Counted from the first letter of the stretch, positions 58,814-61,685 are shown. The stretch is 64,000 nucleotides of DNA from Escherichia coli (GCF_003334335.1 NZ_QOWQ01000017.1); one strand, 5' to 3'. Notes: generated by a model from the letters alone, not told the origin. Program-made: numbers and translations.

Positions 58814-59716
58814 ATGGCCAATCTCTACGACTTGAAAAAGTTCGACTTAAATCTTCTTGTCATATTTGAGTGTATTTACCAGCATTTAAGCATTAGCAAA
58901 GCTGCTGAATCACTATATATCACCCCATCAGCCGTGAGCCAGTCGTTACAACGCTTACGTGCGCAATTTAATGACCCTTTATTCATTCGCTCAGGAAAAG
59001 GTATCGCGCCGACGACAACAGGGTTAAATCTGCATCACCATCTTGAGAAAAATCTCAGAGGCCTTGAACAAACAATTAATATAGTCAATAAGTCCGAACT
59101 AAAGAAAAACTTTATTATCTACGGCCCTCAGCTCATTTCTTGCTCTAATAATAGTATGCTGATCCGCTGCCTACGGCAAGATTCCTCTGTCGAGATTGAG
59201 TGCCATGATATCCTCATGTCAGCAGAGAATGCTGAAGAACTGTTGGTTCACCGCAAAGCCGATCTGGTGATCACCCAAATGCCAGTGATCAGCCGTTCCG
59301 TCATTTGCATGCCATTGCATACGATTCGCAATACTCTAATTTGTAGTAATAGGCATCCACGAATTACTGACAATAGCACTTATGAACAAATTATGGCAGA
59401 AGAGTTCACCCAATTAATATCTAAATCAGCAGGGGTTGATGATATTCAAATGGAAATAGACGAGAGATTTATGAATCGCAAAATCTCATTTCGTGGTTCC
59501 TCTTTGCTGACAATCATTAATAGCATTGCAGTTACAGATTTACTGGGAATAGTCCCCTATGAACTTTATAATTTCTACCGTGACTTTCTTAACTTAAAAG
59601 AGATAAAACTAGAACATCCGTTACCTTCAATAAAGCTTTACATTTCCTATAATAAATCTTCTTTAAATAATTTGGTGTTCTCCCGATTTATTGACCGTCT
59701 AAATGAGAGTTTTTGA
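58814..59716 (+). CDS. ybdO: LysR-family transcriptional regulator
   Basis: 300 aa; N-terminal LysR HTH (LNLLVIFECIY...SAVSQSLQRLR); very AT-rich coding sequence. Confidence 0.88.
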   Translation: MANLYDLKKFDLNLLVIFECIYQHLSISKAAESLYITPSAVSQSLQRLRAQFNDPLFIRSGKGIAPTTTGLNLHHHLEKNLRGLEQTINIVNKSELKKNFIIYGPQLISCSNNSMLIRCLRQDSSVEIECHDILMSAENAEELLVHRKADLVITQMPVISRSVICMPLHTIRNTLICSNRHPRITDNSTYEQIMAEEFTQLISKSAGVDDIQMEIDERFMNRKISFRGSSLLTIINSIAVTDLLGIVPYELYNFYRDFLNLKEIKLEHPLPSIKLYISYNKSSLNNLVFSRFIDRLNESF

Positions 59717-59862
59717 TATATAACTACAGACAGCTACTATAACTTTCATCTATTTATTCACAGCGCGAATGAAAAATAAAACACTCTGCTTTACAGTGTT
59801 TACTTTATAATTAACAGACTTATCTCACTGATCACCCTGTAACGTTCAGAGAGCGTCTTCAG

Positions 59863-61083
59863 ATGTCTATTTATAAAATTCCTCTTCCGCTCAATATTCT
59901 GGAAGCTGCACGAGAGCGTATTACCTGGACACTCAACACCCTACCCCGCGTTTGTGTCTCATTTTCTGGCGGCAAAGACTCTGGTTTAATGCTGCATCTG
60001 ACAGCCGAACTTGCCCGACAAATGGGCAAAAAAATCTGCGTTTTGTTTATCGACTGGGAGGCGCAATTCTCTTGCACCATTAACTATGTTCAGTCCCTGC
60101 GCGAGTTGTACACCGATGTCATCGAAGAGTTTTACTGGGTTGCGCTCCCGCTTACGACGCAAAATTCCCTTTCACAATACCAACCCGAATGGCAGTGCTG
60201 GGAACCTGATGTCGAATGGGTACGTCAACCTCCCCAAGATGCGATAACCGACCCTGACTTTTTCTCCTTTTACCAGCCAGGCATGACCTTCGAACAATTT
60301 GTACGTGAGTTTGCCGAATGGTTTTCACAAAAACGTCCGGCGGCGATGATGATCGGCATCCGTGCGGATGAGTCCTACAACCGTTTTGTCGCCATCGCCA
60401 GTTTAAATAAACAACGTTTTGCCGACGATAAACCCTGGACTACGGCCGCACCAGGCGGTCATAGCTGGTACATTTACCCCATTTACGACTGGAAAGTGGC
60501 TGATATCTGGACCTGGTATGCAAATCATCAAAGTCTCTGCAACCCACTGTATAACCTAATGTATCAGGCAGGCGTTCCTCTGCGTCATATGCGAATTTGC
60601 GAACCTTTTGGCCCGGAGCAACGACAAGGATTATGGCTCTATCACGTTATCGAACCGGATCGCTGGGCTGCTATGTGCGCACGAGTCAGCGGGGTAAAAA
60701 GTGGCGGCATTTACGCCGGACATGACAATCATTTCTATGGGCATCGGAAAATCCTCAAGCCAGAACATTTAGACTGGCAAGAATATGCATTATTGCTGCT
60801 CAATAGCATGCCGGAAAAAACAGCTGAGCATTACCGCAATAAAATCGCCATTTATTTGCACTGGTATCAGAAAAAAGGCATCGAGGTTCCACAAACCCAG
60901 CAAGGGGACATTGGCGCGAAAGATATCCCCTCCTGGCGGCGGATATGCAAAGTTTTACTCAATAACGATTACTGGTGTCGGGCATTATCATTTAGCCCCA
61001 CAAAATCGAAGAACTATCAGCGTTATAACGAACGGATAAAAGGAAAACGTCAGGAATGGGGGATACTATGCAACAACGATTAA
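59863..61083 (+). CDS. ybdN: PAPS-reductase-like PP-loop ATP pyrophosphatase family protein (IbrA paralogue)
   Basis: 406 aa; PP-loop SGGKDS at 59965-59982; recognised YbdN. Confidence 0.88.
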   Translation: MSIYKIPLPLNILEAARERITWTLNTLPRVCVSFSGGKDSGLMLHLTAELARQMGKKICVLFIDWEAQFSCTINYVQSLRELYTDVIEEFYWVALPLTTQNSLSQYQPEWQCWEPDVEWVRQPPQDAITDPDFFSFYQPGMTFEQFVREFAEWFSQKRPAAMMIGIRADESYNRFVAIASLNKQRFADDKPWTTAAPGGHSWYIYPIYDWKVADIWTWYANHQSLCNPLYNLMYQAGVPLRHMRICEPFGPEQRQGLWLYHVIEPDRWAAMCARVSGVKSGGIYAGHDNHFYGHRKILKPEHLDWQEYALLLLNSMPEKTAEHYRNKIAIYLHWYQKKGIEVPQTQQGDIGAKDIPSWRRICKVLLNNDYWCRALSFSPTKSKNYQRYNERIKGKRQEWGILCNND

Positions 61084-61685
61084 CGCAGGATTTAACGCAA
61101 TTTCTCGCCAGCTTGCCGGAAGATGATCGCATCAAAGCGATTAATGAAATCCGCATGGCGATCCATCAGGTTAGCCCCTTTCGTGAAGAGCCAGTGGATT
61201 GCGTTCTGTGGGTTAAAAACAGCCAACTTATGCCTAATGATTACAACCCAAACAACGTGGCACCACCCGAAAAAAAACTGCTGCAAAAATCCATTGAAAT
61301 AGATGGTTTTACCCAACCCATTGTGGTCACACATACGGATAAAAATGCCATGGAAATCGTGGATGGTTTTCACCGCCATGAAATTGGTAAAGGCTCATCA
61401 TCATTAAAATTACGCTTAAAAGGTTATTTGCCGGTGACCTGTCTGGAAGGTACGCGTAATCAACGCATCGCCGCGACTATTCGTCATAATCGCGCTCGTG
61501 GACGCCATCAAATCACCGCCATGTCGGAAATCGTCCGTGAACTTAGCCAGTTGGGATGGGACGATAATAAAATTGGCAAAGAGCTGGGAATGGACAGCGA
61601 CGAAGTGCTGCGCCTGAAGCAAATTAACGGCCTGCAAGAGTTGTTTGCCGACCGTCAATATTCCCGCGCCTGGACGGTTAAATAG
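61056..61685 (+). CDS. ybdM: ParB/sulfiredoxin-like nuclease-domain protein (IbrB paralogue)
   Basis: 209 aa; ParB/Srx-type motif VDGFHRH; overlaps ybdN 3' end by 28 nt (alternative start at 61068). Confidence 0.85.
   Translation: MGDTMQQRLTQDLTQFLASLPEDDRIKAINEIRMAIHQVSPFREEPVDCVLWVKNSQLMPNDYNPNNVAPPEKKLLQKSIEIDGFTQPIVVTHTDKNAMEIVDGFHRHEIGKGSSSLKLRLKGYLPVTCLEGTRNQRIAATIRHNRARGRHQITAMSEIVRELSQLGWDDNKIGKELGMDSDEVLRLKQINGLQELFADRQYSRAWTVK

Follow-up and report, generated by a model that had tools for sequence, protein, structure and literature searches.

The Escherichia coli genes ybdN and ybdM are members of an obligate two-gene module. They lie behind the regulator gene ybdO (citR) in a stretch of 64,000 nucleotides (nt) of E. 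coli DNA (NZ_QOWQ01000017.1), which as a whole is called the window here. By architecture and sequence ybdNM is assigned to the IbrA/IbrB family: it has the domain architecture of the family, an overlapping ParB-like gene downstream, and sequence similarity to the IbrAB pairs. Public annotation already covers the genes, their domains and their homology to IbrAB; the RefSeq products are named CitR, 'phosphoadenosine phosphosulfate reductase' (YbdN) and 'IbrB-like domain-containing protein' (YbdM). The locus is therefore known as an object. We propose, with a probability of about 0.4, that ybdN-ybdM is a chromosomal, domesticated copy of the mobile IbrA/IbrB module and a two-protein machine acting on DNA. 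In our best reading it belongs neither to sulfur metabolism nor to partition, and it is not a Dnd/Ssp system.

Scanning one genome per species gave 80 loci, which span Enterobacteriaceae, Bacteroidota, Firmicutes, Alphaproteobacteria, Verrucomicrobia (Akkermansia), Helicobacter, Actinobacteria and one Heimdallarchaeota metagenome-assembled genome. A YbdM homologue adjoins the YbdN homologue in 79 of the 80 loci and stands downstream of it in 77; the remaining locus ends at a contig end. Because the loci were collected with the IbrA PP-loop pattern as seed, IbrB genes without IbrA would be missed. The phage records matched by the two proteins are near-equal in number (224 for YbdN and 226 for YbdM, with an identical genus breakdown), which argues that IbrB without IbrA is rare. 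The two genes are also close to each other, with overlaps of 1-49 nt or gaps of at most 15 nt in most of 63 loci from many phyla. The 28-nt overlap of ybdN and ybdM is present in all complete orthologous enterobacterial loci (L007, L009-L016). The original prediction, which was made from the window sequence alone, had described a LysR gene followed by two genes that overlap by 28 nt, and had taken the overlap as a sign of co-translation. The layout was reproduced exactly, with the ybdM ATG at 61056 inside ybdN and the overlap running to 61083, and the conservation of overlap or close spacing across phyla supports co-translation. Two in-frame ATGs of ybdM, at 61056 (the RefSeq start) and 61068, are four codons apart, and either may be the start codon in use; a start at 61068 would make the overlap 16 nt, as long as in the paralogues on islands and plasmids. 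In the pair on the Heimdallarchaeota-binned contig (L044:7944-10159) IbrB is longer, at 260 aa, and this copy could be really archaeal, viral or a binning error.

The similarity of ybdNM to IbrAB of strain ECOR-9, which had been pointed out in the original prediction, was measured against the O157:H7 island pair, and reaches 58% identity to YbdN over 402 aa and 56% to YbdM over 214 aa. IbrAB-type pairs on plasmids are 57-59% identical to YbdN and 56% to YbdM, and fall into the same PHROG families. In the databases the family is named 'IbrA family prophage gene co-activator'. The names ibrA and ibrB, attributed to Sandt (2002), were reportedly given for the activation of prophage eib genes, and both genes are said to be required for it. 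Activation of eib prophage genes is the sole phenotype attached to the family.

The module is widely carried by mobile elements. The matched phage records belong to phages of Flavobacterium (90), Mycobacterium (60), Streptococcus (21), Arthrobacter (12) and other genera, and a ParB-like protein in Lactobacillus phage phiAQ113 shares 49% identity with YbdM. Firmicutes phages carry the pair behind an SNF2-like ATPase gene, between their lysis and early genes, and in Arthrobacter and Mycobacterium phages it stands just upstream of the terminase; the Arthrobacter phages have extra ParB-like genes and a DNA methyltransferase gene beside it. A YbdN homologue was found on 789 plasmid records (mostly at about 58% identity), mainly from Klebsiella, Escherichia, Shigella and Salmonella, and a ParB-like gene was present at every full-length annotated plasmid match among the matches listed. 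The pair is carried by 323 Klebsiella plasmid records. On a Klebsiella pneumoniae liver-abscess plasmid of the hypervirulence type it lies between fecIRA and salmochelin iroBCDN (L005:8989-10850), and on an E. coli IncF plasmid beside the F4 (K88) fimbrial genes (L004:8992-10841). A second pair, of IbrAB type, occurs in about 2,080 E. coli records on islands or plasmids. In the islands of O157:H7 (L088:2512-9848) and extraintestinal pathogenic E. coli (L089:4536-9833), the pair is followed by a constant PerC-family regulator gene and a hypothetical gene, and preceded by a variable slot. In one strain the slot is occupied by a Mokosh MkoA/MkoC-like helicase (5e-44), in another by an OLD-family nuclease (7e-48), and it looks like a defence hotspot.

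YbdN has the fold of a PAPS (phosphoadenosine phosphosulfate) reductase but lacks the defining features of one. Profile searches, which the original prediction had suggested for both proteins, matched Pfam PAPS_reduct at residues 30-234 (1e-13), DUF3440 at residues 237-384 (5e-23) and, weakly, the PP-loop family ATP_bind_3; the PHROG matches are 2302 (5e-77) and 15645 (1e-86). The AlphaFold2 model is confident (pLDDT, the predicted local distance difference test, 92.7). The top PDB matches of the family profile are CysD (3e-11) and then flavin adenine dinucleotide (FAD) synthase (3e-9); profile and fold together give CysD, FAD synthase and the adenosine phosphosulfate (APS)/PAPS reductases as the best relatives, and neither YbdN nor YbdM has a close relative among solved structures. 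The predicted PP-loop SGGKDS was found by translation where it had been placed. In an alignment of 52 diverse family members, its residues G37, K38 and S40 never vary, and S35, G36 and D39 are conserved in at least 90%. D64, E66, S171, D214 and Y230 are invariant too, and there is almost no variation in the GxRxDES and PxxDW blocks, which are typical of PAPS-reductase-family proteins. In contrast, no cysteine is invariant or conserved in at least 90% of the 52 members: the commonest cysteine column reaches 83% and is alanine in YbdN, and the next ones 54-58%. The family counts 1693 members at E<=1e-3 and 217 at E<=1e-30 among 1.84 billion representative proteins; its long members resemble frameshifts or misassemblies and are uninformative as domain fusions.

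The catalytic cysteine of E. coli CysH lies in a C-terminal ECGLH motif. The alpha/beta fold of the PAPS reductases is present in YbdN, but its C-terminus is occupied by DUF3440, and its scores stay well below the cut-offs of the CysH models (34.8 against 254.2 bits for TIGR02057, 34.0 against 154 for PRK02090 and 24.8 against 165.1 for TIGR00434). For the curated CysH, CysD and DndC models alike, the score is a small fraction of the cut-off. Without a conserved cysteine, YbdN does not qualify as CysH or as DndC. Its intact PP-loop and its lack of cysteines suggest ATP-dependent adenylyl transfer. The label 'phosphoadenosine phosphosulfate reductase', which IbrA homologues carry in phage and RefSeq records, is probably wrong for YbdN. 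For the DUF3440 clade as a whole the lack of a conserved cysteine makes this label doubtful, and also the label cysH under which a viromics study counts the clade in sulfur metabolism (bioRxiv 10.1101/2021.01.05.425418).

If these names were correct, YbdN would be a genuine PAPS/APS reductase of sulfur assimilation. The PAPS_reduct domain and fold agree with this, the cys regulon is induced in a citR deletion (PMC9068703), and ybdM of Salmonella has been reported as co-regulated with met genes. A tandem MetJ-box-like site, AGACGTTTAGATGTCT, is also found nearby (window 62913-62928, about 70 nt upstream of the ybdL start), with 2 mismatches to two met boxes and a chance expectation of 0.07 matches per window. 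This box may explain the reported met co-regulation of the Salmonella ybdL/ybdH/ybdD/ybdM cluster. Since it stands upstream of ybdL, which converges on ybdM, the co-regulation of ybdM may be antisense read-through. The box belongs to ybdL, and a sulfur or methionine link for ybdNM was judged weak. Against sulfur assimilation stand the missing invariant cysteine, the PP-loop kept intact as in ATP-using members and the low CysH scores; it also gives no rationale for an obligate ParB-like partner or for carriage by phages and plasmids. We hold it to be extremely improbable.

The original prediction had also compared the locus with Dnd- and Ssp-like DNA-modification systems and suggested a possible conflict module. 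The comparison has a precedent, as DndB (ParB superfamily) and DndC (PAPS-reductase family) form a known PP-loop/ParB pairing that acts on DNA (PMC12839542). Weak matches of YbdN to DndC (22.2 bits against a cut-off of 290.4 for TIGR03183; 21.8 bits for the PADLOC model, at residues 155-254 only) and to the PADLOC model of BrxP (18.5 bits, PP-loop region only) point the same way, and so does the variable slot with defence-type genes beside the E. coli island paralogues. However, the family has no conserved cysteine or iron-sulfur (Fe-S) ligand, the DndC score is far below the cut-off, the PADLOC Ssp models gave no match at E<=0.1, and no PADLOC model fits the pair as a system. No dnd genes, cysteine desulfurase, restriction partner, PglZ gene or Ssp partner gene adjoins the pair, its annotated neighbours being dsbG, citR and ybdL. 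The suggestion of a conflict or defence module at this locus disagrees with a core gene pair in a fixed position between dsbG and ybdL, and the family is phage-borne as well. Chromosomal copies in other phyla lie outside defence islands among housekeeping genes (RNase Y, bioD, uridine phosphorylase, a chemoreceptor), and only the E. coli island paralogues lie beside variable defence genes. The Dnd/Ssp analogy was thus not upheld, and anti-phage defence or sulfur modification of the DNA backbone is improbable.

YbdM belongs to the ParB/sulfiredoxin (Srx) superfamily and carries a helix-turn-helix (HTH) domain. Its Pfam match to ParB_N is weak (3e-4), and its match to PHROG 2159 'ParB-like partition protein' is strong (4e-69). 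The predicted VDGFHRH motif was recovered, nt 61356-61379 encoding IVDGFHRH. Among 47 homologues from many phyla and phages, D103, G104 and R107 of VDGFHR are invariant, with V102 and H106 conserved in at least 90%; in TIRHNRARGRH, R143, N145, A147 and G149 are invariant, and T141, I142, H144, R146, R148 and H151 reach at least 90%. The conserved blocks are NxYNPNxVAPPExxLL, DGxTxPxV, VDGFHR, TIRHNRARGxH and a C-terminal GMDxDExLRLKQ. Conservation is unusually strong, with 41-71% identity to YbdM also in cases where IbrA, the partner, reaches only about 30%. The best structural match is KorB (10.9), followed by sulfiredoxin (10.2), PadC (10.1), SbnI (9.3), free serine kinase (8.9) and Spo0J (8.1), and the C-terminal part matches HTH DNA-binding domains, including the KorB DNA-binding domain (8.2), sigma region 4 and the VirB core. 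There is strong indirect evidence that YbdM binds DNA and a nucleoside triphosphate (NTP) and that it forms a co-translated complex with YbdN.

YbdM has both the N-terminal ParB/Srx fold and the HTH, but it differs from known members of the superfamily. In a hidden Markov model (HMM) alignment to Noc, VDGFHR falls on the GERR of Box II, and of the GERRxRA patch only the last arginine is kept; in place of the Box I arginine stands an invariant asparagine (NPN). Little sequence follows the HTH, so that there is no C-terminal dimerisation domain; no ParA gene adjoins ybdM among the open reading frames (ORFs), and the NCBIfam Noc model gives 20.8 bits against a cut-off of 315. Lacking the arginine patch, the dimerisation domain, a ParA partner and a parS site, YbdM cannot be classed as a canonical ParB. 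Nor is it a sulfiredoxin, because the catalytic cysteine of the GCHR motif is absent from it. A redox link to the neighbouring ahpCF-dsbG genes, in the manner of sulfiredoxin-like repair, was considered and rejected, as these neighbours are not conserved outside enterobacteria and YbdM has no Srx cysteine.

Several observations support DNA as the target of the pair. The catalytic domain of YbdN has an isoelectric point (pI) of 5.0 versus 9.4 for DUF3440, a helical and basic domain to which no structural relative was assigned. This basic domain, the KorB-like N-domain with HTH of YbdM, and the SNF2, methyltransferase and terminase neighbours together argue for DNA. An SNF2-like ATPase is one of only two recurrent neighbours beyond the pair (about 19 loci by tblastn, 15 by clustering), and its gene stands directly upstream of the pair in about 19 loci, and likewise in Firmicutes phages and Listeria. 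The Listeria core operon codes for a small protein, an SNF2-related protein with a Pfam-confirmed SNF2 domain, a DUF3440 protein, a ParB-like protein and an S-adenosylmethionine (SAM) methyltransferase. The other recurrent neighbour is a 138-aa protein without family match, in 18 loci. A short SNF2-related ATPase (about 400 aa) was seen before the pair in Firmicutes and their phages, some Alphaproteobacteria, Opitutales and Chitinophagaceae, and a small protein of about 125-140 aa, without family match, is often also upstream of the SNF2-associated pair. The SNF2-preceded arrangement may be an extended form of the system. An ATP-binding cassette (ABC) transporter cluster near the pair was dismissed as coincidental. 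Thus the nucleic-acid role given in the original prediction remains plausible, with the HTH, the basic DUF3440, the SNF2 neighbours and the carriage by phages and plasmids in its favour; its kinship with DNA-modification systems of the Dnd and Ssp types did not hold.

Modification of RNA or protein is a further explanation, in which YbdN would act like TilS or ThiI on transfer RNA, or like Cap9 on a partner protein, with YbdM as the substrate or adaptor. Cap9, a PP-loop enzyme in the Cap9-CdnD complex 'containing NDG modification', is a distant match of YbdN, and the invariant HTH of IbrB could be a protein- or RNA-binding surface. Nevertheless, the closest relatives of YbdN are in the clade of CysD, flavin mononucleotide (FMN) adenylyltransferase (FMNAT) and CysH and not in the tRNA-modifying clades, and its partners and neighbours are DNA-related (ParB fold with HTH, SNF2 ATPase, methyltransferases, terminase). 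This explanation is rather unlikely.

The regulation of ybdNM in E. coli has largely been published. The LysR regulator predicted for ybdO was borne out, as YbdO has the Pfam domains HTH_1 and LysR_substrate and passes the NCBIfam CitR equivalog NF047710 with 467.1 bits (cut-off 400); among the 80 loci, CitR accompanies the pair only in the orthologous enterobacterial ones. CitR, an identity of YbdO that the original prediction had not given, is a published repressor of ybdNM, with a ChIP-exo (chromatin immunoprecipitation with exonuclease) peak upstream of citR-ybdNM, and deletion of citR raises ybdN by log2 5.5 and ybdM by log2 2.5 (PMC9068703). In the same deletion 86 genes change, lrhA going down and the flagellar and cys regulons up, and the peak at citR-ybdNM is the sole one tied to a changed gene (PMC9068703). 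YbdNM may therefore mediate many of the changes in the citR deletion. Repression of ybdO by H-NS involves its binding at an upstream and a downstream element (URE/DRE), and transcription starts 107 bp before the ATG, at about 58707 in the window (PMC4720273). In E. coli K1, acid pH lifts the H-NS repression and YbdO activates capsule genes (PMC9141747). The strikingly AT-rich ybdO of the original prediction was confirmed, with 38.5% GC against 50.3% for the whole window and 32-34% for the flanking spacers.

Two deep allele classes of ybdO and its flanks exist in E. coli, the identity being at least 95% in 3634 genomes and 80-90% in 1761. Comparing window 58606-59862 with L087:1507-2762, the K-12-type and B2-type alleles of ybdO are 79.8% identical in nucleotides and 88.4% in amino acids; the ybdO-ybdN spacer is the most divergent segment (69%), and the dsbG-ybdO region is 86.6% identical. 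Between the same classes dsbG, ybdN, ybdM and ybdL are all about 95-98% identical (ybdN 94.8% and ybdM 96.7%), and the proteins YbdN and YbdM 98.8% and 99.0%. This bimodal identity fits the published H-NS-linked diversification of ybdO, which is among the fastest-diverging H-NS-bound 'horizontally transferred' genes (PMC4720273). With ybdO divergent while YbdN and YbdM are near-identical, the regulator evolves fast and both enzymes are under strong purifying selection, which was counted as selection on the pair.

Taken together, we infer the following mechanism for the proposed DNA-acting machine. Through translational coupling, YbdN and YbdM would be synthesised jointly, and they would act as a complex. 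YbdM would bind DNA through its HTH, and its NTP-binding ParB/Srx pocket would serve as a switch or phosphotransfer site. YbdN would be no reductase but a cysteine-free PP-loop enzyme that converts ATP to AMP and pyrophosphate and, like CysD and FMN adenylyltransferase, adenylylates an oxyanion (phosphate or carbonyl oxygen); its basic DUF3440 domain would hold the nucleic acid. The outcome would be a changed state of the DNA, most likely a covalent mark or a processing step, which would alter the expression of horizontally acquired genes, as IbrAB does on prophage eib, and may protect phage or plasmid DNA. The PerC-family, fimbrial and siderophore neighbours and the transcriptome of the citR deletion were counted in favour of an effect on expression. 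In E. coli the module would normally be off, the AT-rich ybdO region being silenced by H-NS and ybdNM being repressed by CitR. In a bolder and less probable version, IbrA/IbrB would be an undescribed, sulfur-independent and adenylylation-driven system of DNA modification or processing, with which the DNA of phages, virulence plasmids and islands is protected or reprogrammed by the element that carries the pair; it would at the same time be an epigenetic switch for xenogeneic genes, with the E. coli copy silenced.

Several points weigh against a machine that acts on DNA. The HTH of IbrB is as conserved as its enzyme-like domain (0.59 pairwise column identity each), which is unusual for a sequence-specific operator binder and argues against lineage-specific operator recognition; a protein-contact role fits equally well. 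When 51 loci were searched for a parS-type non-coding motif common to the surroundings of the pair, only coding k-mers were returned, and no inverted repeats were found at the locus. In K-12 the effects of ybdM are small, its deletion shifting fitness by 1-2% and its overexpression costing 10% of the growth rate (PMC8764527). In the literature searched there is no biochemical function for YbdN, YbdM, IbrA, IbrB, DUF3440 or lmo1309/1310; the original prediction likewise knew of no substrate of YbdN/YbdM.

The main rival is a regulatory nucleoprotein module, in which YbdM/IbrB would be an NTP-gated clamp like VirB or KorB that counters H-NS or activates promoters with no covalent change of DNA, and YbdN would be only a loader, a partner or a nucleotide-handling accessory. 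It agrees with KorB as the best structural match and with the match to the VirB DNA-binding core, with the position of the pair at H-NS-type xenogeneic loci (eib, the PerC-family regulator, iro/fec, the F4 fimbrial genes, H-NS-bound ybdO) and with the pleiotropic transcriptome of the citR deletion. However, a canonical catalytic PP-loop that is strongly conserved across phyla is hard to explain without catalysis, the pair also occurs in virulent phages whose hosts, Gram-positive bacteria and Bacteroidota, have no H-NS, and IbrB has neither the ParB arginine patch nor the C-terminal dimerisation domain. A clamp of this kind is possible, though we regard it as doubtful.

A toxin-antitoxin pair, with the ParB-like protein as antitoxin and the DUF3440 protein as toxin, was also considered. 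The two-gene, overlapping and mobile cassette resembles such a pair, Listeria lmo1309/lmo1310 are flagged by TASmania through guilt by association (PMC7020466), and the growth cost of YbdM overexpression agrees with it. In contrast, the enzyme-first order and the sizes of 406 and 209 aa are atypical, and the conservation across phyla is far above that usual for these pairs. The Keio single deletion of ybdM exists and slightly raises fitness, unlike the loss of an antitoxin. The probability of this explanation is very small.

If the bolder version of the mechanism were true, thousands of genomes and viromes would carry mistaken 'PAPS reductase' and 'cysH AMG' (auxiliary metabolic gene) labels for DUF3440 proteins. 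In the best-studied bacterium, ybdN and ybdM lack an assigned function, and their family is wider than its annotation implies. Their chemistry could reveal a new way by which mobile elements mark or remodel DNA, and their function could explain part of the pleiotropic citR phenotype (flagella, cys regulon, capsule). The locus is easy to test, being non-essential, silent by default and de-repressed by citR deletion.

The features of the locus are listed in Table 1. The order dsbG-citR-ybdN-ybdM-ybdL is constant, and the 3.3-kb region is present in 5423 of 5426 complete E. coli genomes. Insertion sequences break the locus in some strains: IS1A lies at the LysR gene in NZ_OY754443.1, which is otherwise 100% identical to the window, and ISApl1 and IS1B lie at ybdM in NZ_CP026935.2. 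Promoter and terminator scans of the locus gave no more matches than shuffled sequence. A weak sigma-70-like match at 59713-59740 in the ybdO-ybdN spacer is no evidence of a promoter, as shuffled sequence matched more. YbdM protein is 29-fold up in MG1655 with a CTX-M-15 plasmid (PMC8764527), and the ybdM deletion is one of ten Keio mutants that resist a lacritin peptide (PMC12147183). ybdL (61686-62846, - strand), which codes for a methionine aminotransferase, converges on ybdM with 0 nt between the stop codons (61685/61686), and the scan found no terminator-like site at this junction. Because the stops abut, expression of either gene may interfere with the other; a published list of 'excludons' from E. 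coli RNA sequencing includes ybdL-ybdM as a convergent one (PMC12288877). Upstream, a thiol-redox cluster of ahpF, ahpC and dsbG (window 55114-58605) adjoins the locus of the sulfiredoxin-fold gene ybdM.

Table 1. Positions of the features of the ybdO-ybdN-ybdM locus in the window and of SNF2-associated pairs in other loci.
Feature	Position	Strand	Remarks
ybdO (citR), LysR-type regulator	58814-59716	+	300 aa; ORF call
ybdN, IbrA-family PP-loop ATP pyrophosphatase	59863-61083	+	406 aa; ORF call
ybdM, IbrB-family protein	61056-61685	+	209 aa; ORF call
dsbG-ybdO intergenic region	58606-58813	+	32% GC; ybdO promoter and upstream H-NS element
ybdO-ybdN intergenic region	59717-59862	+	146 nt, 34% GC
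ybdN/ybdM overlap	61056-61083	+	28 nt, ybdN 3' end over ybdM 5' end; translational coupling
PAPS-reductase-fold domain of YbdN	~59950-60564	+	fold/Pfam
DUF3440 domain of YbdN	~60571-61014	+	Pfam
PP-loop SGGKDS of YbdN	59965-59982	+	residues 35-40; translation
N-terminal helical hairpin of YbdM		+	residues 1-39
ParB/sulfiredoxin-fold of YbdM		+	residues ~46-150
C-terminal HTH of YbdM	61512-61643	+	residues ~153-196
VDGFHR motif of YbdM	61359-61376	+	residues 102-107; aligns with Box II (GERR) of ParB and Noc
TIRHNRARGRH motif of YbdM	61476-61508	+	residues 141-151; most conserved IbrB-family block
SNF2-associated pair, Listeria	L006:6451-10568
SNF2-associated pair	L001:4833-7789
SNF2-associated pair	L003:4824-7770
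SNF2-associated pair	L077:5843-9928

Among known systems, IbrA/IbrB of the ECOR-9 island type has the same architecture as ybdNM, PAPS_reduct with DUF3440 followed by an overlapping gene for a ParB/Srx and HTH protein. ybdNM, a paralogue of the island copies, differs from them in its fixed core position and in having its own LysR repressor, CitR; the island copies have variable defence-type genes in front and a PerC-family regulator behind them. The nearest functional analogue is DndB-DndC, which shares the combination of a ParB-superfamily protein with an intact PP-loop ATP pyrophosphatase. Unlike Dnd, ybdNM has no conserved cysteines or Fe-S ligands and no adjoining dndA, dndD or dndE; compared with DndB-DndC, IbrA has DUF3440, and IbrB has VDGFHR, TIRHNRARGxH and a fused HTH. 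Compared with KorB, VirB, ParB and Noc, YbdM has DGFHR in place of GERRxRA and asparagine in place of the Box I arginine. It also departs from ParB-type clamps by the lack of a dimerisation domain, a ParA partner and parS-like repeats, and by its obligate PP-loop enzyme partner. With CysD and eukaryotic FMN adenylyltransferase (the PAPS domain of FAD synthase), about 165-175 residues of YbdN align at 18-21% identity. In contrast to these enzymes, YbdN adds the 170-residue basic helical DUF3440, and has no CysN GTPase partner and no flavin context.

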